Source: a virus (Duplodnaviria; Heunggongvirae; Uroviricota; Caudoviricetes). Taken from it: 15,972 bases of DNA. The notes beneath the pieces are model-generated. The model was not told the DNA's origin and ran no database searches. It saw nothing but the letters and a program-made list of their open reading frames with translations. Where the stretch lies: IMG/VR virus record IMGVR_UViG_3300021426_000084; one strand, given 5' to 3'. Positions 180-12,384 of this stretch are shown one piece after another; the first letter of the stretch is position 1; each line of letters begins with the position of its first letter. Made by a program: the position numbers and the translations under genes.

Positions 180-236
180 TTGACACATACCCATTGTCTT
201 GTTTATCTTGAGAACTTTGCTTCTCTCTGTTATAAT
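180..236 (+). promoter_or_regulatory. sigmaA/sigma70-type promoter(s) of the TA operon
   Basis: TTGAGA (208-213), 17 bp, TATAAT (231-236) with extended TG; a second possible TTGACA (180-185), 18 bp, TATCTT (204-209); 8-bp direct repeat GAGAACTT at 171-178 and 210-217. Confidence 0.75.
194..211 (+). repeat. Hairpin-less copy of the TTGTCTTGTTTNYYWTGA motif
   Basis: TTGTCTTGTTTATCTTGA, 17/18 identical to copies at 1468, 3718 and 5406; no triloop hairpin upstream. Confidence 0.7.
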
Positions 237-253
237 TAGAGTAGGTGAGAGTT

Positions 254-568
254 GTGAATATATCAAAAATAAGAAAGCTGTGTCTTCAATATGGCGTAAG
301 GATTTCTCGCCACGCCAGTGAACGACTGGACGAGAGAAATATAACCATAGACGAAGTAGAACAAACCATATTGTATGGTGAAGTTATAGAGGAACGTCCA
401 TGGAGTACGCCACTGCCATCATGTCTGATGTTTTATATACATATGAATGGGCGCCCTATCCATGTGGTTGTTGGGTTAGATGGTGACAATGATGAAATAT
501 CGCTTATAACAGCATATATTCCCAGTAGCGACAAATGGGAAGACGACTTTAAGACGAGGAGGAAATAA
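254..568 (+). CDS. DUF4258-family (RelE/BrnT-like) putative toxin
   Basis: Motifs SRHASERLDERNITIDEV, SCLMF...GRPIHVVVG, LITAYIPSSDKW...KTRR are typical of DUF4258; GTG 254 has an AGGTG RBS (ORF track start 245 lacks one); coupled to a YgiT-type zinc finger gene. Confidence 0.85.
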   Translation: MNISKIRKLCLQYGVRISRHASERLDERNITIDEVEQTILYGEVIEERPWSTPLPSCLMFYIHMNGRPIHVVVGLDGDNDEISLITAYIPSSDKWEDDFKTRRK

Positions 569-569
569 C

Positions 570-794
570 ATGACTTGTGCAACTTGCGGCGGCAGCATAA
601 ATGGTGATAAGCTCACTGTATACTATGCGCATTATAATGGTTATCTGATATCTATAAAGAATGTTCCTGGAGCAGTATGCCCACAGTGTGGAGAAGTATG
701 GTATAAGTCTCCTGTGTTGAAGCGGGTAAAGGCTCTTATTGAAGAAGCTAAAAAGACAATAGACAGCAATATTGTCATGGATTACGCGGCGTAA
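570..794 (+). CDS. YgiT/MqsA-type zinc-finger protein, putative antitoxin (no HTH)
   Basis: CxxC (CATC) ... NVPGAVCPQCGEVWY motif; GAGGAGG RBS inside the toxin 3' end; ends DYAA. Confidence 0.85.
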   Translation: MTCATCGGSINGDKLTVYYAHYNGYLISIKNVPGAVCPQCGEVWYKSPVLKRVKALIEEAKKTIDSNIVMDYAA

Positions 795-828
795 AATATG
801 CGTCCGTTGTGATGTGGTTACTACCGTT

Positions 829-863
829 GTCTGCTCCGCAGACGATTGTCTTGTTTCTTATGA
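829..863 (+). repeat. Triloop hairpin + conserved tail, copy A
   Basis: GTCTGC-TCC-GCAGAC (829-843), then TTGTCTTGTTTCTTATGA at 846. Confidence 0.85.
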
Positions 864-881
864 ATAACTAAAAATAACATG

Positions 882-916
882 TAAGCTCCAGTCTGTATGG
901 CTGGGGCTTATTTTAT
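882..916 (+). terminator. Terminator-like RNA hairpin with U-tract
   Basis: TAAGCTCCAGTC / GGCTGGGGCTTA 12-bp stem with G-U pairs, followed by TTTTATT. Confidence 0.55.
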
Positions 917-942
917 TGCCTGTAAAGGAGATGTGTATAAAT

Positions 943-1422
943 ATGTTACTCAATAAAATGACTGCACATGAAAGAAAGGCTCTGTTTGGATTGTGTGCTT
1001 TAATGCTGCATAATGCCATGGCTAATTCTGAGGCATTTGTAGTGCCCCTAGCTATAAGAGGGTGTATTACTTCTGATGTACTTGGTCTGTTAAAAGCAGA
1101 GTGGGTAGACGGAAGGAAAATGCGCGCCCAAAATGTTAAGGGCGTTACCCCTCAGCAGGTAGCCATGGCCATGGTAAAGGCAGATGTCGTCGAGGTGCCC
1201 CAGGTGGCAACGGGGCCTTCGGCCGAGGAGGGAATGAAACCCCAGCTGGATAGTGAATCTGTCCTGAGCGCCGGGGCTGTATTTACTACGGCATCGAAGC
1301 GCAAGTACAAGGTTGTCACCAAGTTTGACCTCGCCGAGTATCTTGCATCTTCTCCTGCAAACAAATGCCGTATCATCGCTGGTGCGGTAAAAGACTGTGC
1401 CATCGAGAAAGTTGCCGCATAA
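943..1422 (+). CDS. Hypothetical protein, C-terminal ...KVAA
   Basis: ORF 916-1422; AAGGAG at 925-930 makes ATG 943 the likelier start. Confidence 0.7.
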   Translation: MLLNKMTAHERKALFGLCALMLHNAMANSEAFVVPLAIRGCITSDVLGLLKAEWVDGRKMRAQNVKGVTPQQVAMAMVKADVVEVPQVATGPSAEEGMKPQLDSESVLSAGAVFTTASKRKYKVVTKFDLAEYLASSPANKCRIIAGAVKDCAIEKVAA

Positions 1423-1447
1423 CATCGAGCTATTCAGTTAGTGTCTC

Positions 1448-1485
1448 ATCGCCCTCCGGGCGATAGGTTGTCTTGTTTATTTTGA
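1448..1485 (+). repeat. Triloop hairpin + conserved tail, copy B
   Basis: ATCGCCC-TCC-GGGCGAT (1448-1464), TTGTCTTGTTTATTTTGA at 1468. Confidence 0.85.
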
Positions 1486-1520
1486 ATATGTTTTTTTGTT
1501 TTTTACAGGAGGAAATCAAT

Positions 1521-1799
1521 ATGTTTGACGTAAAAGAGCTTAACAAGAAGATTAAAGAGATTGGCGTTGATAAAATCAGATATATTGCCGAGGAGGAAGA
1601 TGGCGGCAATGAATGGAGCTCCTATATCGATCTCGACGACAGCAACGCAAAACAATACTTCGGTTTTGACCTTAAGACCGAGTCTTTCCAGGATAACATA
1701 ACGGAATCATGGGAAGGTTATCGTATTGACCCCAGCCCGTTTGACGGTATGTTCGATATTGTCTTCTATGGGTACGGCACGGCATATCAGTTGGATTGA
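1521..1799 (+). CDS. Small acidic, aromatic-rich hypothetical protein (92 aa)
   Basis: AGGAGG RBS before ATG 1521; 21 D/E vs 9 K/R. Confidence 0.8.
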   Translation: MFDVKELNKKIKEIGVDKIRYIAEEEDGGNEWSSYIDLDDSNAKQYFGFDLKTESFQDNITESWEGYRIDPSPFDGMFDIVFYGYGTAYQLD

Positions 1800-1827
1800 C
1801 ATCGAGGTTTCTTAGGTAAAGACAGCT

Positions 1828-1862
1828 GTTCGCTCCGCGAACGGTTGTCTTGTTTTTCATGA
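1828..1862 (+). repeat. Triloop hairpin + conserved tail, copy C
   Basis: GTTCGC-TCC-GCGAAC (1828-1842), TTGTCTTGTTTTTCATGA at 1845. Confidence 0.85.
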
Positions 1863-2196
1863 GAGATTGTTCCTGACGTGTAGGAGAAGTACTGGAATGC
1901 TTCCGACACTTACAGATGGAACGGTTATGTGTACAGGAAGAATGTTCCAGCATTCTCGACACTTGCGCAAAACCAGGAGAGGTCGTTATGGCTTCTCACA
2001 GATGATATCAGATATTAGAACTCAATAATATTCTGGTGTCATGTGTGAGCAGTCCTAAGGCAAGGGATTGCCCCCTCCTATAGTAAAAAACAAAAGGGGA
2101 GGTTCCCAAACATACCGTTTGGGGCCTTCTCAAAGTCATGATATTTTTCTTCTCCGGGCAAGCTGATTTTGTGGTTTGCCCGGTGTTTTCTTTTTT
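1863..2196 (+). ncRNA. Candidate structured ncRNA or leader (family not recognised)
   Basis: No credible ORF; nested stems 1871-1978, ~23-bp stem 1995-2049, GGCAA-GGGA-TTGCC (GNRA loop) 2059-2072, CCCAAAC/GTTTGGG 2105-2123, terminator at the end; G-U pairs favour the + strand. Confidence 0.4.
2154..2196 (+). terminator. Intrinsic terminator-like hairpin
   Basis: CCGGGCAA / TTGCCCGG stem followed by TGTTTTCTTTTTT. Confidence 0.65.
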
Positions 2197-2249
2197 ATCA
2201 TGTTTTTGAGAAGGTTTGTTTTTCTCTATAACAGAAAGGAAGAGTAGCT

Positions 2250-2657
2250 ATGACTATCTATGTTGTGGAATCTGAAATATACTATGACGGAACTCCTGAA
2301 GTGAATATCGAACAGGTATTTGCCGCCCGCAAGGACGCAGAAGTGTTCGTGGCAAAAGCAAATGCTTTTAATGCCGTGCTGTCAAACAAACCATGTTTAC
2401 GCATTATAGAGCATGAGGTTGCAGAAAGTGAAAACTTCCAGCCGCAAAACATTTGCGTGTCTATCTGGGAAGCAGAAAATGGTTCGCTTTCAAGACCATA
2501 TGTGTTTGCAACGGCAAAAGATGTGCATCCTATGGAGCGCGAGGAAGAGCCGAACTGTATAAACTACGCCGCCAGTTGGAGGGGAGTGTTCCCTTATCAG
2601 GAAGGCGTGACCAAAGAAGAACTGGTAAAAAAGGCCTTCGGCCAGTGCAAAAAATAA
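2250..2657 (+). CDS. Hypothetical phage-type protein
   Basis: GAAAGGAAG RBS; N-terminus IYVV...QVFAARKDAE resembles a common small phage beta-alpha domain. Confidence 0.75.
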   Translation: MTIYVVESEIYYDGTPEVNIEQVFAARKDAEVFVAKANAFNAVLSNKPCLRIIEHEVAESENFQPQNICVSIWEAENGSLSRPYVFATAKDVHPMEREEEPNCINYAASWRGVFPYQEGVTKEELVKKAFGQCKK

Positions 2658-2670
2658 AGGAGCGCAAGCA

Positions 2671-3102
2671 ATGACAAAAGAGGAATTAAGAGACAAACTC
2701 AATGAAGAGCGTGGCTCGATGACAGGGCTCTGCTCCACCGAGCTTGCTTTGGAAGTATGTAATATGGTGTTGAGTGAATGCAGCGCGCCCATGTTTGCAG
2801 GAAACGATATTGCAGAAACCGAAGTGGGCAGTCTTGCCATAAGCTTTGAGGCAAGGGAATTTAGTGGCTGGCTCCGTGAGTATGCCAGTGCAGACATGTC
2901 GCTTTGCACGGCAGAAAAAGTGAGCAGGCTACTGGAATACTTCGGTATCAACAACACCGTATGGTATGCCTACAAGGGAGTTCGCCAAAAAGACTTCCGG
3001 CATATCAGTCTGCCCATGTCCAGAATCCGCGAGGAATATCCATATCTTTGGAAAACCTGGAGTGGAGAGCCCATTTATTCAGAGAAAAATGGTGTAGCGT
3101 AA
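2671..3102 (+). CDS. Hypothetical protein (ends ...GVA)
   Basis: AAGGAG RBS; operonic with 2250-2657. Confidence 0.75.
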   Translation: MTKEELRDKLNEERGSMTGLCSTELALEVCNMVLSECSAPMFAGNDIAETEVGSLAISFEAREFSGWLREYASADMSLCTAEKVSRLLEYFGINNTVWYAYKGVRQKDFRHISLPMSRIREEYPYLWKTWSGEPIYSEKNGVA

Positions 3103-3122
3103 AATAGAAAGGGAGATATGCC

Positions 3123-3518
3123 ATGAAAAAGTATGCATTGAAAATCGTCCGTAATAATGTTATGATAATTCCTGTTTGGGACGTAACCTACGGCAAGTTT
3201 GCTACGCTTGCCTACGAGCTGGTTATCCATCATTATCTTCCGGGCTCCTTTGACCGCTGGGAGATAGTATCGCGGCATGGTTGCACTACGAAGTACAAGG
3301 ACAAACTTACCGGAGAAACAGCTTATAGTTGGCTGATGAAAAACGGCAAGATTGTGTCGGACTTCGATGAGGAAGATAAGCCGCAGAGCAAACCATTCAC
3401 GGTATTTGCTAATGGCAAAGCTGTAGGGTGCGACAGTGTTCAGCAGGCCGCCCGCATGGCTGTCAATGCAATCTTTGACCGTATCCACCGCCCGGCCATT
3501 ATGCGCCGCGCATCATGA
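3123..3518 (+). CDS. Hypothetical protein (ends ...RRAS)
   Basis: AAAGGGAG RBS; operonic spacing. Confidence 0.75.
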   Translation: MKKYALKIVRNNVMIIPVWDVTYGKFATLAYELVIHHYLPGSFDRWEIVSRHGCTTKYKDKLTGETAYSWLMKNGKIVSDFDEEDKPQSKPFTVFANGKAVGCDSVQQAARMAVNAIFDRIHRPAIMRRAS

Positions 3519-3536
3519 TTTAGGAGGAATTGGAAA

Positions 3537-3692
3537 ATGGAAGTCTGGATAGTTTTACTCTTTCTTGCAAGTATCTTGTATTTTGTCATTCTCATTGGCT
3601 GGGTAATTCTGTCAGCCATTTGGGAAAGTATTCAGGAAACCTACTTTCCCAAGAAAGAATCCCGCGACAACAGAAAGAGATATACCCACTGA
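3537..3692 (+). CDS. Small single-pass membrane protein, 51 aa (MEVWIVLLFLASILYFVILIGWVILSAIWESIQETYFPKKESRDNRKRYTH)
   Basis: Not in the ORF track; AGGAGG 3523-3528 is 8 nt before ATG 3537; ~27-residue hydrophobic stretch then a charged tail; the track ORF 3530-3760 is in a different frame. Confidence 0.75.
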   Translation: MEVWIVLLFLASILYFVILIGWVILSAIWESIQETYFPKKESRDNRKRYTH

Positions 3693-3700
3693 CTGCCGTT

Positions 3701-3735
3701 TCGCCCTCCGGGCGATATTGTCTTGTTTATTTTGA
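3701..3735 (+). repeat. Triloop hairpin + conserved tail, copy D
   Basis: TCGCCC-TCC-GGGCGA (3701-3715), TTGTCTTGTTTATTTTGA at 3718. Confidence 0.85.
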
Positions 3736-3774
3736 GATGATTTTTTTGGACGCATTGTGAAAGGAGCGTTTATC

Positions 3775-3924
3775 ATGAAAAAGACGTACATCTCGATTGA
3801 ATGGGGCGACCAGAGAACACGGTTTGAAAGAGCCGAGGCAATCAGAAAAGCCTTGGAGCTTGTAGCTCGTAAGGCACAAAAACCAAATACGCTGGAAGAA
3901 AAAGCCGCCCGCAAAGCGGCTTAA
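3775..3924 (+). CDS. Small basic protein, 49 aa (MKKTYISIEWGDQRTRFERAEAIRKALELVARKAQKPNTLEEKAARKAA)
   Basis: Not in the ORF track; AAGGAG 3761-3766, ATG 3775, TAA 3922-3924; ends AA like its neighbours. Confidence 0.75.
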   Translation: MKKTYISIEWGDQRTRFERAEAIRKALELVARKAQKPNTLEEKAARKAA

Positions 3925-3975
3925 TTTTTTTGCCCGAAAATATTTGTGTAGTTTTGGAAAAGGAGAATGAACACC

Positions 3976-4374
3976 ATGGAAATGAAAATGTATTTTAACG
4001 CTAAAGAAATGCTCGCCGTAAAGAAGCTGATGGAATCCTTCGGCCAGACCTTTGTCCGTGAAGACCAGTATGAGGTAGATGGCCCCATTCGCTTCAGCGT
4101 GAACCATGTAGATGGCGAGGCTATTGTCACCATTGCCAGCAACGACAATTTCTTCTGCGATGTGCTGGGTATCTTCAGCCGCAACGCCGGTCTCATCAAG
4201 AACGTAATCGGCGTTGGCAAGAGTCTGTTCGAACTCTGCAAGAGCACGGTAAACATCCTGGAGGGTGAGCTTGATACAGTATGCAAGAAGTACCGCACTC
4301 CGGTCAAAGATGAACACATTAAACCGTACGGCAGTTTTACTACTGAGCCGGTAATCGACAAAGAGGCCGCGTAA
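3976..4374 (+). CDS. Hypothetical protein, C-terminal ...KEAA
   Basis: AAGGAG 3960-3965 fits ATG 3976 better than 3967. Confidence 0.8.
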   Translation: MEMKMYFNAKEMLAVKKLMESFGQTFVREDQYEVDGPIRFSVNHVDGEAIVTIASNDNFFCDVLGIFSRNAGLIKNVIGVGKSLFELCKSTVNILEGELDTVCKKYRTPVKDEHIKPYGSFTTEPVIDKEAA

Positions 4375-4421
4375 AAACTCGCGTCGCTTGCTGTTGATTT
4401 TTTAGAAGACGAAGGGACTGA

Positions 4422-4601
4422 ATGTATATGAAAAGATTTATCAAATGGTATTTAGGAGACGACAAGGCAGTAAGTGACGAGAAGGTTTTGGCCCGCCGGC
4501 AGAAATTTGTCGGTGGAGCCAAGGCCATAGCAGAACAGGCAGTAGACGTGATTGCAACCGGCGCGGTTGTATTCTACGCCGTCGCAAGAAACATTCGTTA
4601 A
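4422..4601 (+). CDS. Small protein, 59 aa (MYMKRFIKWYLGDDK...TGAVVFYAVARNIR), hydrophobic C-terminal segment
   Basis: Not in the ORF track; GAAGGGA RBS 4411-4417; fills the gap between neighbouring genes. Confidence 0.65.
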   Translation: MYMKRFIKWYLGDDKAVSDEKVLARRQKFVGGAKAIAEQAVDVIATGAVVFYAVARNIR

Positions 4602-4620
4602 GAAAGGCAGGTTGCTAATC

Positions 4621-4788
4621 ATGTTCAATACAAATGCAAACACAGAAAAAATCCGTAAACATAACCGCATCTACAGCGAAGGCCGCGAAGCAAGAATGCT
4701 TCGTGACCGCGCCAAGCGGAAGATGACCCGCAGGGACTATGACCGCCTTGCGGAAGAAAAGTATGCCGAGTATAAAATAGCGGCATAA
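4621..4788 (+). CDS. Small basic helical protein, 55 aa, C-terminal ...KIAA
   Basis: AGAAAGGCAGG upstream of ATG 4621 (track start 4552 overlaps the previous ORF). Confidence 0.7.
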   Translation: MFNTNANTEKIRKHNRIYSEGREARMLRDRAKRKMTRRDYDRLAEEKYAEYKIAA

Positions 4789-4863
4789 CCGATATTTTGG
4801 CTGGAGACGCCGCAAGTAATTATCCTCTTGTCTGGATAGTGCCGTCTTCGTCCAAATTCCACT

Positions 4864-4896
4864 TCGCCCTTCGGGCGACATTGCTTTGTTTTTATG
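4864..4896 (+). repeat. Triloop hairpin + conserved tail, copy E (variant tail)
   Basis: TCGCCC-TTC-GGGCGA (4864-4878), TTGCTTTGTTTTTATG at 4881. Confidence 0.8.
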
Positions 4897-4900
4897 GGTT

Positions 4901-4956
4901 CCTGGCGCTCCCCAACCCCCTATGGGCTTCCCCTATGCGTCAGGGGCCTATTTTTT
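4901..4956 (+). terminator. Terminator-like hairpin with U-tract before the 4978 gene
   Basis: CCTGGCGC / GCGTCAGG stem with a large loop, T6 at 4951-4956. Confidence 0.4.
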
Positions 4957-4977
4957 ATCAAAGAAAGGAAATGACCT

Positions 4978-5247
4978 ATGGTATTTCAGAATGACCTGGA
5001 AAGTGTATTCCCTGAAAGCTACTACCGGTTCTTGCCGGCCAAGAGACTGACCACTCTTTGCGATAGCTTCCATATCGTAAGTGACGGCAGTGAACTTGAC
5101 GTTATCCGCAGGGACACCCTTGAAGGAAACGTCGTAACAACCGCCCGCCTTAAAAGCGAGGCCGGCGAGACTATCTTCTTCACCGCCCATACCACCTATG
5201 GTGACTTACTGCATCTTGTGGACAAAGAGGCAGAGGCCGCCGCATAA
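4978..5247 (+). CDS. Hypothetical protein, C-terminal ...EAEAAA
   Basis: GAAAGGAA RBS 7 nt upstream. Confidence 0.8.
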   Translation: MVFQNDLESVFPESYYRFLPAKRLTTLCDSFHIVSDGSELDVIRRDTLEGNVVTTARLKSEAGETIFFTAHTTYGDLLHLVDKEAEAAA

Positions 5248-5388
5248 ACCCCCACCTTGGCAAAAAAAGAGGAGCTTTGAGCCCCTCATAGTACGTCGAA
5301 GAATGTTTGTTGCCTCCTACATTTTTCGGCGCACTATGAAAGGCTTGAATCCCAAAGTAAAAATCCCCTTTCCAAGAACAGAACTCTT

Positions 5389-5423
5389 GTCTGCTTCGCA
5401 GACGATTGTCTTGTTTATTTTGA
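5389..5423 (+). repeat. Triloop hairpin + conserved tail, copy F
   Basis: GTCTGC-TTC-GCAGAC (5389-5403), TTGTCTTGTTTATTTTGA at 5406. Confidence 0.85.
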
Positions 5424-5618
5424 GAGGATTTTTCCGCCCGCATACATACAGATTATATAACTAACTTACGTCTGTCTCCTGTAAGCAGGGCTGAGCTGAT
5501 TTTATCCTTTCACCGTCGTAGCCCCAGAAAACGGACAGTAGTCCAGAAATGTTCATTTGTAGCCCGCTGAAGCGAAATGCTGATAAAAAGCGGGATAAGA
5601 AAAAGGAGTGTTTTATTT

Positions 5619-6548
5619 ATGGCAAACGTAAATGAAATGATTAAGGCAGAAGCAAACAAGGTATCCCGCCGCGAAGCATTGATGGCAAACCTCGATAAGC
5701 AGATGGAGGCAACCAATGTGCTGACGGAAAAAGCCCGCGCAAAACGCGAGGAGGAACTCAAGAACAACACGGTTATCATGAGTGTCGTCAGTTCCCGGGG
5801 TTACGTCGGTCTGGTTGCCGGCGATATTGCCCAGGAAATCGTTGAGCCCGCTGTTGTGGCCAAGGCCGTAAACAAGAAGACGGGTGAAGTTATGACCGCG
5901 CCCGTTGCGACGTTGAATGGCGTGCGTCAGGCTCTCCATAAGGCCGCAGAGTATGGCAAAGACCATCTGGTTCTTTATGTCAATGACTTTGAGGCTCGCC
6001 GCATTTCCGGCATGCTCAACCGCATTGGTAAGGGTTCGAACGAAGTGCTCACGGCAAAAGAAGTTGAACACATTTCCAGCCCGACCAATGCCAGCAAGTA
6101 TGGCAACAGCTACATTGCCTATGCGAAAGGCGTATTCCTCGACCTGAAGGCGGCGCTCGAAAAGTTTAAGTCCATTCGCGTGATGGGCCACAACGCCATC
6201 TTTGGCTGGGAACTGAAGTACAGCAATCTGCCGCTGGATATGGAAAACATGGAGCTGACCTTCAGCAAAGGTTTTGCGTCCACGACCTTTAAGGGGCGCA
6301 ATTATCGCATCAGCCTTGCTTCCGGCTTCAAGCTCAATGGCAAGCACAAACTGGTAAAAGCCAATGGTTCTTTGGTGGTTGGCCGTGAAATCAAAGAAGG
6401 CTCCGAGCAGGAAACCGCCCGTGACCTGTTGTCCATTGTCAACAAGACGATTATCATCAAGGACAACACGGACCGCAGTGAAGCCATTGTGAATGAAGGT
6501 GCAGGCATCGACGCTCCGGCTGAAGAAGCCATCGATTTCGCCGCATAA
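5619..6548 (+). CDS. Hypothetical protein with a possible degenerate RNase H-like domain, C-terminal ...DFAA
   Basis: AAAGGAG RBS before ATG 5619; segment ATLNGVRQALHKAAEYGKDHLVLYVND ... KAALEKFKSIRV resembles the RNase HI helix A/strand 4 pattern (by eye only). Confidence 0.8.
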   Translation: MANVNEMIKAEANKVSRREALMANLDKQMEATNVLTEKARAKREEELKNNTVIMSVVSSRGYVGLVAGDIAQEIVEPAVVAKAVNKKTGEVMTAPVATLNGVRQALHKAAEYGKDHLVLYVNDFEARRISGMLNRIGKGSNEVLTAKEVEHISSPTNASKYGNSYIAYAKGVFLDLKAALEKFKSIRVMGHNAIFGWELKYSNLPLDMENMELTFSKGFASTTFKGRNYRISLASGFKLNGKHKLVKANGSLVVGREIKEGSEQETARDLLSIVNKTIIIKDNTDRSEAIVNEGAGIDAPAEEAIDFAA

Positions 6549-6566
6549 GCAAATACATGCAAAAAG

Positions 6567-6604
6567 ACTGGGCTGTCAGCAGTTGATGGCCCAGTTTGTT
6601 TTTA
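6567..6604 (+). terminator. Intrinsic terminator-like hairpin
   Basis: ACTGGGCTGTCA / TGATGGCCCAGT stem followed by TTGTTTTTA. Confidence 0.6.
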
Positions 6605-6629
6605 TCGTCAAGAAAGGACGGAAACCAAA

Positions 6630-6920
6630 ATGATTATGAACAAAGTATGCCCGAAACATATCGTATTCCCGAAATCCAACCGTGCCAATTCCAAAGTAAA
6701 CTGGAGTCTTACCAAGAACCTCCCCAATGGCTGGGTAAATATCTCCGCCAAAATCCCCCAGACTTGTCTGGATAAATACGGCTTTATCAGCCGCGACGTA
6801 ATCAATTTGCTCCGCACTCCATGCGCAGACAGCCGGTTTAAGCTTCGTTCGCTGTACAGAGTGGAGGTCAGCTATGACTACCACCTTATCGAAGACGCAG
6901 TTATGCCGGTTGCCGCTTGA
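6630..6920 (+). CDS. Hypothetical protein, C-terminal ...PVAA
   Basis: AGAAAGGA RBS; 96 aa. Confidence 0.75.
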   Translation: MIMNKVCPKHIVFPKSNRANSKVNWSLTKNLPNGWVNISAKIPQTCLDKYGFISRDVINLLRTPCADSRFKLRSLYRVEVSYDYHLIEDAVMPVAA

Positions 6921-6950
6921 TAGTCGGTTGCCCCTTGAGGAGGGATTTTA

Positions 6951-7772
6951 ATGGAAACACAAAAAGATACAAAAAATACTCAGGGGGCTGACCCTATCCT
7001 CAGCTTCCTGAATGATACCATCGATACATTGCTTACGCCTGAAGAAAAACAGGAGAAAAAGCAAGAACCCATCGATGTCACACCCACGCCCAGAGAGACG
7101 GAAGAAGCAGAGCCGGCGCCAAAAGAAGTAAAAAGCGTCGACCAGATTGCTGATGAATTTGCACAGGAAGTTGCAAAAAATGTACAGGAGGAAATCAAAA
7201 TGAGTGAACAGAAAGAAACACAGGTAACCATCGACAGTGAAACCGGCGAGGTAGTGCAGGAGAGGTTCTCCAAGACCTTTGAGAACCGTCAGGAAGCCAA
7301 CAACCTGTTGGACTTGCTGGACAGCCTTGGTTATGAAGACAGCTATGAAACCAGCGATGGTGGCAAGACGGTTATCCTCTCTGGTGTTAACGCCGAGGAT
7401 TTACAGCTTATCCAGCGCAAGGCAAACATCAAGCTCTGGTCAGACCGCACGCAGGCAGTTGCCAAAGCCGTCACCACGTTTGCAACCGATGTGGCAGACT
7501 ATGCTTTGAATGGCGCACTTGCTCCGACGGCAGGGGCTGTCGTAAATGCCGGTATGACCACAGGCAGGGTTGTTGCGACTGCCGCTGTTTCGGTTGGCGC
7601 CGCAACGCTTGCTACGACTATCCGCAACGGCAGAGCCGCTGCCCGCGAACTTTCCCGCAATAAGGACGTTCGGGACGCCTGGAATGAAGTGAAAGGTTTG
7701 GGCTCCGATATTGGCGGCTTGCTCTTTGGCTCCAAAGGCGGCACTAAATCCGACTGGACAACGTGTGCCTGA
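6951..7772 (+). CDS. Hypothetical protein: acidic disordered N-terminus, Ala/Gly/Val/Thr-rich amphipathic C-terminus; second in-frame start at 7200
   Basis: AGGAGG at 6938-6943 and again at 7186-7191, 8 nt before in-frame ATG 7200. Confidence 0.85.
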   Translation: METQKDTKNTQGADPILSFLNDTIDTLLTPEEKQEKKQEPIDVTPTPRETEEAEPAPKEVKSVDQIADEFAQEVAKNVQEEIKMSEQKETQVTIDSETGEVVQERFSKTFENRQEANNLLDLLDSLGYEDSYETSDGGKTVILSGVNAEDLQLIQRKANIKLWSDRTQAVAKAVTTFATDVADYALNGALAPTAGAVVNAGMTTGRVVATAAVSVGAATLATTIRNGRAAARELSRNKDVRDAWNEVKGLGSDIGGLLFGSKGGTKSDWTTCA

Positions 7773-7786
7773 TTTACAGAAAAACG

Positions 7787-7820
7787 TCCGTCCGCAATTT
7801 CGCGGGCGGATTGTTTTTTT
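7787..7820 (+). terminator. Intrinsic terminator
   Basis: TCCGTCCGC / GCGGGCGGA stem followed by TTGTTTTTTT, directly after the 7772 stop. Confidence 0.75.
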
Positions 7821-7855
7821 ACGCATACTTAAATAACCCGAAGGAGGATACTGTT

Positions 7856-7990
7856 ATTCTTGCACTGCTATACGCTCTGTTCGAGATAGGTTCCGAAATG
7901 AACCAGATTATCGAAATAGAGATAGAGAAAGACCAGCGCGAAATCCAAAGGCTCAAAGAGGAGCAACGAAAACTTCGCGCCCGTAAGTAA
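7856..7990 (+). CDS. Possible small protein (hydrophobic N-terminus + charged coiled coil) with ATT start, or pseudogene
   Basis: Perfect AAGGAGG 7841-7847 followed 8 nt later by in-frame ATT rather than ATG; alternative ATG at 7898. Confidence 0.35.
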   Translation: MLALLYALFEIGSEMNQIIEIEIEKDQREIQRLKEEQRKLRARK

Positions 7991-8430
7991 TCCTGCCGCA
8001 GAAATTCGTACTCATGAAAGGAGTGAGATAAGCACCATGGTTGTTGTGACATATTTAGAAAAGCTATACAGATTATCCAGAACACTAACCCATCCCAGAA
8101 CAATAGCTTATGTCACAAATACCAAAACTGATATGGTTGCCAGCCCCTTCCCCACCCAAAAGAGACAAGAAGAAAGACCTCTAAGACACTTTTTGGTTAA
8201 ACAAACTGTTAAGTGTCTGCACACATCCCGGTTGGGACTTATCATCGCCCGGCCGCAGAACTGCACCACGGGAGATATTAAGGCACCACCCCATATATAG
8301 GCTCCAGGCCTTCAGCCTAACCTTATGAGCGCAGATTGATATACTTGTTCGGTCAGACCTTGTGAGCGCAGACAAAATAAGAAACTGCCTGACAGGCGAA
8401 CAAGAAAAATCAAAAGCTCATATTTTGTTA

Positions 8431-8705
8431 GTGCGAGCGAGCGAAGCGAGCGAGCACATCAAACAATATTTAATCCCCAAACAACTAATCAAACAAGCGA
8501 AAAGAACAGAGCTTGTTTATATATGCGAGCGTAGCGAGCATATAAAAAGAAAACAAATATTTAAAAAAGCATACTAACTTTTACAGACATTGTAAAAAAT
8601 AGTATACGACCTACCCGAAGGGCAGAACGAAATATATACATGAAATGACAAAAGAATGTATATATTAAGTCATGCCCCTATTAAGGGGCGAACGAAGTGA
8701 GCCCC
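8431..8705 (+). repeat. Cluster of four GNA-triloop hairpins on the + strand, three with tandem GA/GA mismatches
   Basis: GTGC-GA-GC-GA-GC-GAA-GC-GA-GC-GA-GCAC (8431-8457); TATATGC-GA-GC-GTA-GC-GA-GCATATA (8520-8544); CCC-GAA-GGG (8614-8622); GGGGC-GA-AC-GAA-GT-GA-GCCCC (8685-8705). Confidence 0.8.
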
Positions 8706-8859
8706 GGCAAACACTCATGCGGAAAGATATCACCTATATAGTCTATCAGAGACAAAAAGCGGATATCTTTTTGTAAGATTACCTCTTTACTTAAAAGAAC
8801 GAGTTCTATATCTCCGCCCGCAAAGAGTTCTTACATCTTCTCCGCATGGAAATAACCAC

Positions 8860-8898
8860 GCGCGTCCTCCGGCGCGCAAATTGTACTGTTCTTTATGT
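8860..8898 (+). repeat. Degenerate triloop hairpin + tail, copy G
   Basis: GCGCG(T)CC-TCC-GGCGCGC (8860-8877), TTGTACTGTTCTTTATG at 8881 (13/17 identical to the tail of copy A). Confidence 0.55.
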
Positions 8899-9120
8899 GT
8901 ATATCTCATATCCACCAACAGAGAGAGGTAGACTGTATACGTTATCTCTCTCTTTCCCTATCACATATTCTTTTATATCTCCTAATCCCCTTTATTATAT
9001 ATGCAGCACGCATACTCATTATATGTGTGTAAGAAATAAGGGTGTATATATAAGAGCTATTAGGATAAAAAAAGAAATATATGAATGAATGAATGTACAT
9101 ATAGAGAACGGTATAATTTA

Positions 9121-9144
9121 GCGGGCGAGCGTAAGCGAGCCCGC
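9121..9144 (+). repeat. Tandem-GA hairpin, left flank of the Bro/Rha gene
   Basis: GCGGGC-GA-GC-GTAA-GC-GA-GCCCGC. Confidence 0.8.
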
Positions 9145-9194
9145 ATAACCCAAGCCGCGTCAGGTAAATGACAGTCAGAAAGGAAGATTATGTC

Positions 9195-11180
9195 ATGGAT
9201 AGTATAGACATCATCCACGTAGCAGACAAAAAGCTTATCTCCAGCAAAGAGATAGCAAGGCTGTATAAAATCAAGCATGCAGAACTCTTTGAGTTTATTG
9301 AAGCCCTGTGTAAGTTTGATCCTTACGAAAGGGCATTATTCCAAAAAGCCGAAGGTCATTACCTTATGGAAGAAAAAGGTTTTCTGGCCATACTGACGTA
9401 CGCGTCTCTTGATAAAGAGCGTGACAACATTAAGACAGAGGTGTGTAAGATGTTGAGTAAAAATAGCAAAGGCAAATCCAAAGACAAAATTCCGGCACAG
9501 AATTTACCCGCTGCAGAACCGGAGCAAATTTTTACCGCCCACGGCGAAAGAGTCAAATTTTTGACAGATTTTCAAATTGGCGGACAGAATTATCATCTCT
9601 ACGACGCAGGTATGCAAAATTTGCTGGTCAAAGCCACAGATTTATGCGCATGGCTAAATTTTGTAAAACGTTCGTGGGGAGGATATGATGGCAGCAGACT
9701 GGCGAAAAACCTCGGCGCCGATGAAAAGATAAAAGTCAATATCATAGAGGTATTGGGTAACAAGAGTAGGATACGCAAGCAGTGGCTTGTGACTCTGGAC
9801 GCTGTTCAGAAGATTATTAACTCTGATACTTATCGCGAGCGCATGGATAAGGATATCAGAGAAAGCCTCAACAAGATGATTGACGACATGAACTCCTCCA
9901 CGGTAGGAGAGTCTCCTAAACCTATTGTCATCCCGGATACAAAAGTACAGGTTCAAGAGAAGCTCCCCGACTGGTTCGCTTGTGAGGTGGTTGGCAGCAA
10001 TGACGATATGGAATGGCTGAATGAACTGCCGCCCGAAAAGAATATCACTCCACAAGAGAAAACCGAAGGAGAGGCAGATGGAGAGAGCGCTAAACCCATG
10101 AGCGCAGAATTACAGATTGTAACCGAGCAGGAAGTGCTTGGCAGAAACTTTACCGTGTATGGCACGGCAGAAGAACCATTGTTCCTGGCCAAGGACGTGG
10201 CTGAGATGATTGAGTACGACAGATCTTCCGTACACAAAATGTTGAATACGGTTGAGGAGGAAGAAAAGGTTCGGAAGATTGTTCCGACCCCTGGTGGAGT
10301 ACAAGAGTCATGGTTCCTTACCGAAGATGGTCTGTATGAAGTCTTAATGCAGTCCCGCAAACCAATCGCCAAGCAATTCAAGAAGCAGGTTAAGGCAATC
10401 TTAAAACAGATTCGCAAAACCGGAGCGTATATGTCCCCGCAAGTTGCGGCAGATATACAGCAGGTCATTGTACAAAACTCTGAGGCAATGAAGCAGTTTG
10501 GTCATCTGGTTATGCAAAACTCACAGATTGCTGCACAAAATACGCAGCTTATGGCTCAGCTCGTACAAATGATGACTGAGCGCATAGATAAGAATGGTGA
10601 GCTCGTATCAAGAATCAGCACAGCTGTAGAACAGTCTGCTCAGAATACAAACCTCATCAGTAAGATGGTTAATCAGCTCGGGCGCAATATTACTACGGCC
10701 ATCAAAGACGCAAATACTACGCCGGCCTTGACTGCCACGGATAATAATCTGCCTGCAGGTAACAGTGAACCGGATATCACTGGCTGCATAACCCTGAAAG
10801 CGGCTGCGGAGAAACATGGTTTCTATACCATCAAAACAGGTAAGCCGAATTATTCACTGGTAGCAGACATCTTAAAATATGGCTGCGGTATAATGCTTAC
10901 CGTTATCCCAGGATACAAAGATGACTATATCATAGTCAAACCGACTGTATCCGTCCGCGGCGATATTCGTCCATGTATCTTCTTAACAGTTAAAGCTCAG
11001 ATTAAGTTAAATAACTATATAGTATGCCATATCCATAAGATACTGAAAGTAGAGACTTATAAGAGAGCTTACAACCATAAGTTAAAAGGAGACTGGAGAT
11101 TTGACTACATACAGTTCCCAGGCAGGAGGAGACACATCATTGCCAACAAGAATGGTATGGTTAAAAAATTCGCCGCGTAA
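9195..11180 (+). CDS. Multidomain phage antirepressor-like protein: Rha-like N-terminus, degenerate Bro-N, canonical Bro-N, Gln/Asn coiled coil, C-terminal domain; ends ...KKFAA
   Basis: ISSKEIARLYKIKHAEL resembles Rha-family starts; GTAEEPLFLAKDVAEMIEY...FLTEDGLYEVLMQSRKPIAKQFKKQV..IRKTGAY is a typical Bro-N; GAAAGGAAG RBS favours ATG 9195 over 9168. Confidence 0.85.
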   Translation: MDSIDIIHVADKKLISSKEIARLYKIKHAELFEFIEALCKFDPYERALFQKAEGHYLMEEKGFLAILTYASLDKERDNIKTEVCKMLSKNSKGKSKDKIPAQNLPAAEPEQIFTAHGERVKFLTDFQIGGQNYHLYDAGMQNLLVKATDLCAWLNFVKRSWGGYDGSRLAKNLGADEKIKVNIIEVLGNKSRIRKQWLVTLDAVQKIINSDTYRERMDKDIRESLNKMIDDMNSSTVGESPKPIVIPDTKVQVQEKLPDWFACEVVGSNDDMEWLNELPPEKNITPQEKTEGEADGESAKPMSAELQIVTEQEVLGRNFTVYGTAEEPLFLAKDVAEMIEYDRSSVHKMLNTVEEEEKVRKIVPTPGGVQESWFLTEDGLYEVLMQSRKPIAKQFKKQVKAILKQIRKTGAYMSPQVAADIQQVIVQNSEAMKQFGHLVMQNSQIAAQNTQLMAQLVQMMTERIDKNGELVSRISTAVEQSAQNTNLISKMVNQLGRNITTAIKDANTTPALTATDNNLPAGNSEPDITGCITLKAAAEKHGFYTIKTGKPNYSLVADILKYGCGIMLTVIPGYKDDYIIVKPTVSVRGDIRPCIFLTVKAQIKLNNYIVCHIHKILKVETYKRAYNHKLKGDWRFDYIQFPGRRRHIIANKNGMVKKFAA

Positions 11181-11270
11181 AATGCACGTATAAGGCCGCA
11201 GATTATTTTCTCGTATCCCCATACGGGAAATACATAATGTGCAAATAAAGGCCCATATACGATGAAAAAA

Positions 11271-11294
11271 GCCGGCGAGCGTAAGCGAGCCGGC
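11271..11294 (+). repeat. Tandem-GA hairpin, right flank of the Bro/Rha gene
   Basis: GCCGGC-GA-GC-GTAA-GC-GA-GCCGGC; same core as 9121-9144 with compensatory outer stem. Confidence 0.8.
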
Positions 11295-11395
11295 AAACAT
11301 ATATATGCGCGCCAAAATTTTACGGGACCATTCAGGTCTCCTTAAAATAGCGTATATATTATCCCCTATAAGTCATATAGGATCATTTAGACCTT

Positions 11396-11481
11396 ATGAG
11401 CGCAGCTCATTTATGCCCGACATACCCATACAGGAGTATTCCCCTTAAAAAAGCATAAGGGAAGCCCACAGCGCGAAGCGC
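11396..11481 (+). repeat. Two GNA-triloop mini-hairpins
   Basis: ATGAGC-GCA-GCTCAT (11396-11410); GCGC-GAA-GCGC (11471-11481); CCTTRTGAGCGCAG is also present at 8321-8334 and 8358-8371. Confidence 0.65.
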
Positions 11482-11637
11482 ACAATTTTTCAAGAGTGTA
11501 AACTAGGTATACTGTACAAGTACAACAGTATTGCAACTATGATACAGGAGACCAAAATCAGGGAAAATTATTTATTTATCCCCTAGAGGGAAATAACACT
11601 TTTCCCAAAACAGGTTTACACTTTTGCAAAATTCTGC
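11480..11637. repeat. 24-bp imperfect inverted repeat, 110 bp apart
   Basis: GCACAATTTTTCAAGAGTGTAAAC (11480-11503) vs reverse complement of 11614-11637 (GCAGAATTTTGCAAAAGTGTAAAC), 21/24; internal hairpin ATACTGT/ACAGTAT. Confidence 0.7.
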
Positions 11638-12300
11638 AGTACGAGATGTGGTACTCCAGGGTCAAATATACAGATATATTTGCGGAGAGGCATACCAAAA
11701 ACCCTAAGCCAATATATGAGTGATACGCTTATATGAGACGCAAGTAAGAAGGTAAGTAAGAAGGAAAAGGAAGAGCTGAAAATAGCTCTGAGAAAACGAC
11801 TTCAAAAATGCTCCTCAGTGGCCTCAAAAGGCCTCTCCAGTGCATTTGAAGAGAAAATTTTCCGAAACGGCGTCGAAGATAAGAAAACGCTCACAGATGG
11901 CTTAAAACGGCCAATTTGGGAAGCCGTGTTGTACACGCTTTTCACACGAGATTATGCGCCTTTCTTGCGCATATGATATGCGAGGTGTGCAAAATCGTAA
12001 AGTAAAACCGGCTTCGTTTTTGCAAAATAGGTAAATTTTTACCTTATGTTAGGAGTTGCACCTGGCTCGCCCCACAAATACAAAGCTACATAAAGCTGTA
12101 TAGGGCCGCATATCGCGCGAATACATGAGCGCGTCGCCCCGCAAAGCAGTAGCTCTCTCCACATACGTACAACGCTGCTCCACCAACAAATACAAGGTTA
12201 GAATCCCATAGGGCGTAGCCCAGAGACAAAGAAAGCATGTTAAAACCGGAAAATATTTTTCCTTAATTACAAGCTCTATAGAATTTTGTACACACCCTTC

Positions 12301-12330
12301 TTGACAATGAGGGGTTTTAACGTGTATATT
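12301..12330 (+). promoter_or_regulatory. sigmaA-type promoter of the right-hand gene block
   Basis: TTGACA (12301-12306), 18 bp, TATATT (12325-12330). Confidence 0.65.
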
Positions 12331-12384
12331 ATGTGTAAGAAGTAAGTAAGAAGGTAGCCACAAGTGAGGTGTAAGACAGATTAT

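Follow-up and report, generated by a model that had tools for sequence, protein, structure and literature searches.

Here, I describe a repeated intergenic element in a 15,972-nt stretch of DNA (hereafter, the window) taken from the tailed-phage record IMGVR_UViG_3300021426_000084 of IMG/VR. Each copy combines a short GC-rich hairpin, closed over a TCC or TTC triloop, with a conserved tail just downstream; the stems covary while loop and tail stay fixed, the copies cluster in one region and in one orientation, and on the template strand they look like the early promoters of phage N4. Chances appear about even that these elements are hairpin early promoters of the N4 kind, read by a two-barrel RNA polymerase which the phage itself encodes, and they may in addition be weak terminators and recombination joints. 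A narrower proposal, namely that a giant two-barrel polymerase ejected from the virion recognises GNA-triloop hairpins on the template strand, the N4 solution having been reached independently, is advanced as a tentative one.

From its sheath, portal and tail fibre genes, the source is a jumbo myovirus. IMG/VR contigs of 211-235 kb encode proteins of the window, and three genomes of 90-96% completeness serve for comparison: G002 (224,101 bp), which is 98% identical to window positions 191-11711, G003, and G004 (235,547 bp), which is about 80% identical at the DNA level. Among cultured phages no near match to the window was found; the tail-tube protein is distantly related to that of the Bacillus jumbo phage 0305phi8-36. 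The public runs holding the sequence are gut or faecal samples, and the ribosome-binding sites are of strong AGGAGG types.

When G002 and G004 were scanned entire for triloop hairpins, the combination of hairpin and tail formed a single cluster of about 5 kb (7 copies in G002, 5 in G004) plus one outlier per genome, and in the three whole genomes all copies are co-oriented with the genes. The clustering in one region and one orientation of the replicon, for which the first-pass annotation of the sequence had recommended a check, is thus what the genomes show. The outlier lies about 35.6 kb downstream of the cluster in G004 and G003, and in front of a ClpP-like gene in G002. At the latter site (L034 7540-7640, minus strand; G002 ~219,600) a second TTC-triloop hairpin stands in tandem before the element and a C(UUCG)G hairpin after it, the ClpP-like protease gene being downstream. 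As an exact 19-mer, the tail gave only chance matches in IMG/VR outside the clade, none of them with a hairpin, and Rfam gave no match on the window or on the region upstream of its first copy. The genes of the cluster are small ORFans, which are typical of phage early regions, and are taken here to be early. A consensus sigmaA promoter (TTGACA, 18 nt, TATATT) appears from ~12.3 kb of the window onward, which fits a switch to the host enzyme.

As regards anatomy, the 11-mer TTGTCTTGTTT occurs in six exact copies in the window, on the + strand only (194, 846, 1468, 1845, 3718 and 5406), where chance alone would give about 0.008 copies; at two mismatches or fewer, the count is 28 against a shuffle mean of 7.6, and none of 200 shuffles reaches 28. 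The 11-mer is part of a tail of 18 nt, of which two further, degenerate copies begin at 4881 and 8882. Perfect GC-rich hairpins of 6-7 bp with a C-T(C/T)C-G loop are found at 829, 1448, 1828, 3701, 4864 and 5389, while the hairpin at 8859 carries one bulge; altogether, seven of the eight tails are preceded by a hairpin 2-3 nt away. All seven hairpin sites listed in the first-pass annotation were recovered, and its distances from loop centre to tail (10 nt five times, 12 nt twice) are confirmed; it had overlooked the eighth tail, at 194, which has no hairpin in the window. The copy at 8860, which it called degenerate, is rather a conserved variant, present in the same form in G004 (at 163394). 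On the template strand the hairpin core reads GC-GGA/GAA-GC, and the predicted fold of the minus strand as single-stranded DNA has -5.1 to -7.5 kcal/mol, with z-scores of -1.1 to -3.9.

Selection on the structure was assessed in an alignment of 22 distinct copies from six related sources, namely the window, G002, G003, G004, L053 and L054 (the last two having 62% and 75% protein identity, respectively, in the neighbouring gene). The six core pairs are Watson-Crick in 132 of 132 cells, and five of the six show double, compensatory changes; the covariation score is 0.79 as opposed to 0.26 in shuffles, none of 500 reaching 0.79, and at most 0.23 with slid partners. Homologous sites make the same point directly. 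In L053 the entire stem of copy 5 is swapped from TCGCCC to GTCCGC/GCGGAC with loop and tail unchanged, and single-pair compensations change GTCTGC/GCAGAC into GTCCGC/GCGGAC and, at copy 4 of G004, TCGCCC/GGGCGA into TCGCGC/GCGCGA, there with a TTC loop. No copy departs from the closing C-G pair, from the T-Y-C loop or from the consensus at eleven positions of the tail, among them TTG, TTGTTT and G17. Free variation of the loop among homologous copies, named in the first-pass annotation as evidence that would speak against its reading of the elements, is not what they show, for the loop toggles only between TCC and TTC. On this comparative evidence, the hairpin structure is under selection.

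The composition of the stems also bears on the strand and on the type of nucleic acid in which they pair. G-U pairs are absent from all 132 stem cells (0/36 in the window), as against 10 of 61 in the ordinary terminators of the window (Fisher p = 0.012). Where one strand forms a G-U pair, its complement has an A-C mismatch, and the pattern suggests that the minus strand needs to pair, either alone or along with the other strand. Since the stems are devoid of G-U pairs, a DNA rather than an RNA structure appears to be maintained.

Going through the copies, all on the + strand, copy 0 (194-236) has its tail at 194-211 and lacks a hairpin in this window; relatives keep the hairpin GCCTGC-TTC-GCAGGC (L004 4577-4591 and L007 5649-5663; L005 too). 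The end of this tail doubles as the -35 box, TTGAGA (208-213), of a near-perfect sigmaA-type promoter, with a 17-nt spacer and an extended -10 box, TGtTATAAT, that ends at 236, and which drives a DUF4258/MqsA-like gene pair (245-794). The earlier statement that no sigmaA -10 box lies 17 bp from the TTGTCT of the tail stands for the other copies; copy 0 differs, with TATAAT 17 nt from TTGAGA.

Copy 1 (829-863) has the hairpin GTCTGC-TCC-GCAGAC (829-843), a GA spacer and its tail at 846-863; it lies 34 nt past the stop codon at 794, and is followed by a hairpin with a T-run (881-911) and then by a gene from 943. In copy 2 (1448-1485), 25 nt past the stop codon at 1422, a 7-bp hairpin (ATCGCCC-TCC-GGGCGAT) is separated by AGG from the tail at 1468-1485, an ATG following 35 nt on, at 1521. 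Copy 3 (1828-1862) consists of GTTCGC-TCC-GCGAAC, spacer GG and the tail at 1845-1862. Copy 4 (3701-3735; TCGCCC-TCC-GGGCGA, spacer TA, tail 3718-3735) sits 8 nt past the stop codon at 3692, with an ATG at 3775, 39 nt on. Copy 5 (4864-4898) combines TCGCCC-TTC-GGGCGA and spacer CA with the tail variant TTGCTTTGTTT at 4881-4898. Copy 6 (5389-5423; GTCTGC-TTC-GCAGAC, spacer GA, tail 5406-5423) reads GCGAAGC on the template strand, the classic DNA mini-hairpin, and precedes an ATG at 5619 by 195 nt. Finally, copy 7 (8859-8899) has the bulged hairpin GCGCG(T)CC-TCC-GGCGCGC, spacer AAA and the tail TTGTACTGTTCTTTATG, with a Bro-N gene 268 nt on, at 9168.

What surrounds the copies is compatible with a role in starting transcription. 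Except at copy 0, the spacers have no usable sigmaA promoter, the ribosome-binding site occupying the place of a -10 box, 17 nt after the TTGA of the tail, and the intergenic spacers that bear an element hold no other conserved signal. A case that deserves attention is the first copy of G004, 41 nt before the first gene of the block, where it is the sole conserved signal. Upstream of it lie about 300 bp of non-coding DNA and a divergent gene with a strong sigmaA promoter, and the nearest + strand open reading frame ends about 630 nt away; no co-oriented gene ends close by to supply a transcript which this copy might terminate.

The sequence of events that may be envisaged is as follows. The GC-rich inverted repeat would extrude on phage DNA that is negatively supercoiled or transiently single-stranded, and its template (minus) strand would fold into a highly stable mini-hairpin, in which a stem of 6-7 bp is capped by the triloop C-GGA-G or C-GAA-G. 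An RNA polymerase encoded by the phage would recognise this hairpin together with the adjoining fixed, A/T-rich tail, and rightward transcription would begin within the tail, its likeliest first nucleotide being the invariant G of TTG, which is 11-14 nt away from the centre of the loop. In this way, each copy would launch one small transcription unit of pre-early ORFan genes. Read from upstream, the same sequence may act as a weak terminator, and the repeated tails might serve as joints for the exchange of gene cassettes. The most likely reader would be the two-barrel module of a 3102-aa protein encoded among the tail genes.

This protein (P0001; G002 69148-78456, equivalent to L012 9148-18453) is the product of the middle one of three giant genes (2230, 3102 and 2922 aa) that come after the sheath and tube genes; on the contig of P0004, a distant relative by its polymerase module, just these three are present. 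The two-barrel RNA polymerase module occupies approximately residues 2350-2600. The protein has 17 representative relatives in a library of 1.8 billion proteins, those from metagenomes being 2660-3412 aa long, and none among 50,697 deposited phage records. In all 16 aligned sequences, query included, at 21-98% identity to the query, RQPxxYxxS is followed 38 residues on by DxDGD, the invariant residues being R465, P467, Y470, S473, D503, D505, G506 and D507; as a sequence pattern, such a pair of motifs characterises the beta' double-psi barrel. A model of residues 2000-2900 (predicted local distance difference test, pLDDT, 75) matched a bacterial beta' (largest) subunit in Foldseek with E = 4e-8 and probability 1.0. 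With VIA, an independent aligner, the Pol I largest subunit was matched with Z = 9.5 and a root-mean-square deviation of 5.1 over 259 residues; Pol I and Pol II largest subunits came first, then archaeal and vaccinia polymerases, with weaker matches to P74 gp62, QDE-1, AR9, phiKZ and P23-45 gp96. A second barrel, of beta type, is likely at residues 354-417 of the model. The expectation of the first-pass annotation that the replicon encodes a polymerase is therefore borne out as to the enzyme, which is the phage's own two-barrel module, and not as to its kind, which differs from the N4/T7 kind known to read such hairpins.

At the corresponding place in 0305phi8-36 there are three genes for giant virion proteins, which mass spectrometry has detected; one of the three bears the annotation of tape measure protein. 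Because of this correspondence, the 3102-aa protein is probably packaged as well, and would be ejected with the DNA.

A second candidate is a protein of 1100 aa (P0025/P0026; G002 16391-19693, minus strand, on L009), whose gene lies about 5 kb upstream of the hairpin cluster and which has an invariant KYP...GSDRDGDK motif. The nearest language-model clusters carry the family of RNA-dependent RNA polymerase (RdRP) and QDE-1, with a score of 0.95; its structure model (pLDDT 35) is unusable. By its sequence it may be a second, non-virion polymerase of the two-barrel type.

Searches for other polymerases in the three genomes returned nothing. Pfam profiles for cellular-type beta' and beta subunits, sigma region 2 and RdRP (PF05183) found none there; nor did the T7-like polymerase profile PF00940, a weak negative in that the control gave no match anywhere. 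Against PHROGs, Pfam and PDB, the three giant proteins matched only an HNH domain and an 'endolysin' family, with no PDB sequence match to the N4 virion RNA polymerase (vRNAP), and a regular-expression search found in them no T7-type motifs (motif B). These negatives are at the level of sequence, and leave room for a fold-level relative of N4 vRNAP in the 2230-aa and 2922-aa proteins. Among more distant phages, BLASTP against gp99, the two-barrel polymerase of 0305phi8-36, was not significant, and ORF146 of that phage has no DxDGD. Such hairpins are absent from the 100-150 kb region of KLEB27-3 and from G005, a relative by its polymerase module, but the latter is only a 31%-complete fragment.

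Four metatranscriptome runs cover parts of the window, as assembled contigs only; contigs cannot prove ends, their depth cannot rank genes, DNA may be present in RNA libraries, and uncovered stretches (e.g. 7996-9061 in X1 and X2) were not used as evidence. Within these limits, two contigs of run X2 begin at 3726 and 5414, each 8 nt into the tail (of copies 4 and 6, respectively) and 6 nt downstream of the invariant G. This is compatible with a 5' end there or a few bases upstream, be it a start site or a cut.

To sum up, clustering, a fixed loop on covarying stems, a polymerase of its own and the likeness to N4 promoters partly support the promoter function that the first-pass annotation had proposed for the hairpins, and several observations weigh against it. 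Only the T7-like enzymes of N4-like phages are known to start from hairpin promoters in DNA that is single-stranded or extruded, and for no two-barrel polymerase has the use of a hairpin promoter been shown. The enzyme known for such hairpins is T7-like and none was found here; with the N4 mini-vRNAP as query there was no match in the three genomes. The distant relative 0305phi8-36, which has a two-barrel polymerase, has no family of TYC-triloop hairpins. Where N4 has a fixed ruler, the distance from hairpin to tail is here 9, 10 or 12 nt, and the best-conserved part of the element is found, unusually for a promoter, past the presumed start. In three copies a terminator-like hairpin (881-911, 2154-2183, 4930-4946) stands before the next gene, and RNA-library contigs run across copies 5, 6 and 4 (X1 3785-5011, X1 5352-6828 and X3 3191-3862, respectively). 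Lastly, the elements agree with a loose terminator consensus, six copies scanning as terminator-like (a GC stem and then a T-rich run) and most lying 8-141 nt past stop codons.

The latter point introduces the alternative that survives best, unlikely as it appears: the elements might be intrinsic terminators, or terminator/promoter cassettes like the PeSLs of T4-like phages, with the tail as U-tract and the next unit starting from a separate promoter. Such a terminator-then-promoter layout exists at least once, at copy 0, where the tail ends in the -35 box of a strong sigmaA promoter, and the ordinary terminator at 2154-2183 likewise has T-rich sequence and TTGAGA after it. Moreover, PeSLs are composite promoter/terminator cassettes that flank ORFan genes at indel joints (PMC4122927), much as the elements do here. 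The elements do appear, from genome comparison, to lie at joints of gene-cassette exchange. Positions 1-190 of the window are a replaced segment, homology to G002 beginning at 191, the exact boundary of hairpin and tail. Copies 0 and 1 enclose the DUF4258/MqsA-like pair, which G004 lacks; there, a single element stands immediately before the next gene.

Several features of the elements go beyond, or against, what termination would need. The U-tract is broken by fixed G and C bases, and an invariant loop and an 11-mer kept exact across genomes that are only 80% identical exceed the needs of a terminator. As RNA, the stems are weaker (-9.6 to -11.7 kcal/mol) than the ordinary terminators of the phage (-11 to -21), and never use the G-U pairs which those contain. 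Ordinary long-stem terminators with a T-run are used within the block itself (881-911, 2154-2183, 3902-3922, 6565-6597 and 7786-7811) and elsewhere, whereas the present type is confined to one 5-kb region. That contigs span copies 4, 5 and 6 implies that the elements are not efficient stops, unless those contigs are contaminating DNA. As for the separate promoter, every copy but copy 0 lacks a -10 box and leaves too little space for a sigmaA promoter ahead of the ribosome-binding site, and the first gene of G004 would be left without a promoter.

Less probable still is that the elements are signals for RNA processing or stability, a host or phage endoribonuclease cutting a long early transcript in the tail and the hairpin protecting the upstream 3' end. 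In Firmicutes, RNase Y cuts A/U-rich RNA near a structure preferentially after a G, and the early RNA of T7 is, comparably, processed between genes; the two X2 contigs begin at the same position of the tail, just past the invariant G8, and the intergenic position and single orientation of the elements are compatible with processing. Yet neither the absence of G-U pairs nor the identity of the opposite strand to a DNA mini-hairpin would be accounted for, and UCC and UUC triloops have no known special stability in RNA. A promoter strong enough for the 8-kb block is found at copy 0 only, with several ordinary terminators in between, and the first copy of G004 has no co-oriented gene immediately upstream.

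It is very unlikely that the elements are the DNA site of some other protein, be it an operator of the 'stoperator' kind by which early transcription is blocked, a site at which a primase starts, or one that an HUH relaxase or a Rep protein nicks. Copy 4 runs GGGCGA-TATTGTCT, apparently with the spacing of the nic region of R388, in which a hairpin is likewise followed by TATTGTCT; this octamer is present in some copies only, the others having GATTGTCT, GGTTGTCT or CATTGCTT, and no TrwC-type relaxase (PF08751) was found in G002, G003 and G004, the search having covered that HUH family alone. GNA mini-hairpins do occur at primase sites, e.g. the G4 ori and RSF1010 ssiA (PMC13037366), and the phage encodes a primase-like protein; still, eight co-oriented sites placed exactly between small genes fit expression better than replication or transfer, and no repressor-like (helix-turn-helix) protein was found near the cluster.

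Some observations on the surroundings of the elements may be added. Upstream of copy 0, L004 (4260-4560) and L007 (5330-5640) have a GC-rich non-coding stretch of about 300 nt, without Rfam match, between a divergent gene of 81-85 aa with a strong sigmaA promoter and the first hairpin; in the window, positions 1-190 stand in its place. By eye it is seemingly more conserved than the flanking genes, and it holds tail-like TTGTCTTC motifs and repeats of the type GCTCGC-TTC-GCTCG. In the gene pair behind copy 0, a toxin-like gene of DUF4258 (245-568) is followed by a gene for an MqsA-like antitoxin (570-794), and the pair has a consensus sigmaA promoter of its own at 208-236. Between copy 3 and the strong terminator at 2154-2183, about 330 nt (1863-2196) have neither a convincing gene nor an Rfam match, and may encode a non-coding RNA or belong to a long leader whose transcription the element launches. 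Past that terminator, the T-rich run and TTGAGA are followed after 15 nt by TATAAC, which resembles the promoter at copy 0. Copies 1 and 5 are each followed closely, inside the presumed leader, by a terminator-like hairpin (881-911 and 4930-4946, respectively), of which the first is absent from the homologous leader of G004; these hairpins may be attenuators or RNA-stabilising structures. The gene of the 670-aa Bro-N protein (9168-11180) is flanked by long non-coding regions (8300-9160 and 11180-12360), both with another family of + strand hairpins, GCGAGC...GAA/GTAA...GCGAGC, with tandem G-A steps. Ala-Ala forms the C-terminus of many of the small proteins, their genes closing with gccgcataa or gcggcgtaa (at 792, 1420, 4372, 4786, 5245, 6546 and 11178).

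Three known systems invite comparison. With PeSLs the elements share short stem-loops and conserved regulatory sequence around ORFan genes, at joints of insertion or replacement; they differ in that PeSL promoters are ordinary sigma70 early promoters, while a -10 box is found here at copy 0 only, and in that the loop is invariant here and matches the DNA mini-hairpin.

The likeness to N4 is closer. The early promoters P1-P3 of this coliphage, hairpin promoters of the Schitoviridae kind, are read by its giant T7-like virion polymerase, gp50, and supercoiling and SSB are needed there for the hairpins to extrude. Read directly from the N4 genome (EF056009), promoter P1 is GTTGC-TTC-GCAAC-TTAT-G, P2 is AAGAAGC-TCC-GCTTCTT-TTGG and P3 is AAGCTGC-TCC-GCAGCTT-TTGG. 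The resemblance noted in the first-pass annotation therefore extends, with the real promoters at hand, down to the heptamer GC-TCC/TTC-GC, and P1-P3 share with the elements both loop variants and a T-rich spacer which is followed by a G. GCG(G/A)AGC is an extraordinarily stable DNA mini-hairpin, and is bound by the N4 enzyme (PMC13037366; PMC4496689). N4 starts at 11 nt from the loop centre, and early starts of LUZ7 were mapped at a G 13-14 nt from it (PMC9163698); in the elements the invariant G of TTG lies mostly at 12 nt, in one copy at 11 nt and in the copies with a 7-bp stem at 14 nt. Along the same line, the elements have in common with N4 and LUZ7 a GC-rich stem of 5-7 bp, a 3-nt loop GGA/GAA on the template strand closed by a C-G pair, and several co-oriented copies before small genes, which there are early and here presumably so. 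The differences are as clear. N4 is a podovirus of 70 kb, and the present phage a myovirus of 224 kb in which no N4/T7-like polymerase is detectable; the most conserved part of the element is the 18-nt tail downstream of the hairpin, whereas conservation in N4 stops at +1; the stem is not constant at its second pair (GC or CC), nor is the spacing, which shifts by 1-3 nt. Since the T7-like polymerase that defines the N4 system was sought and not found, the present one is not a strict member of it.

On the side of the enzyme, the closest parallels are gp66 of the crAss-like phage phi14:2 and gp96 of P23-45, each likewise a giant protein from among the tail or ejection genes with a beta'-like double-psi barrel and DxDGD, the polymerase of gp96 being fused to the tape measure protein. 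Their sequence similarity to the 3102-aa protein is undetectable, and the packaging of the latter is a prediction. Virion two-barrel polymerases of crAss-like phages and of P23-45 transcribe single-stranded DNA well, gp66 with a preference for it. In crAss-like phages no early promoter motif was found, the early promoters of gp66 having yielded no motif in common, while gp96 uses an AT-rich motif without a hairpin. The present lineage, in which a clean, covarying, N4-like hairpin signal goes together with two-barrel polymerases as the only candidates, gives a concrete template on which the way such enzymes find their start sites can be tested in vitro. Should a two-barrel enzyme of the virion indeed read them as hairpin promoters, the elements, which would mark the pre-early genes of an uncultured jumbo phage of the gut, would be the first class of promoters to be defined for a virion two-barrel polymerase of the single-chain type that crAss-like phages have, and the GCGNAGC mini-hairpin would have been put to use convergently in this lineage and in N4.

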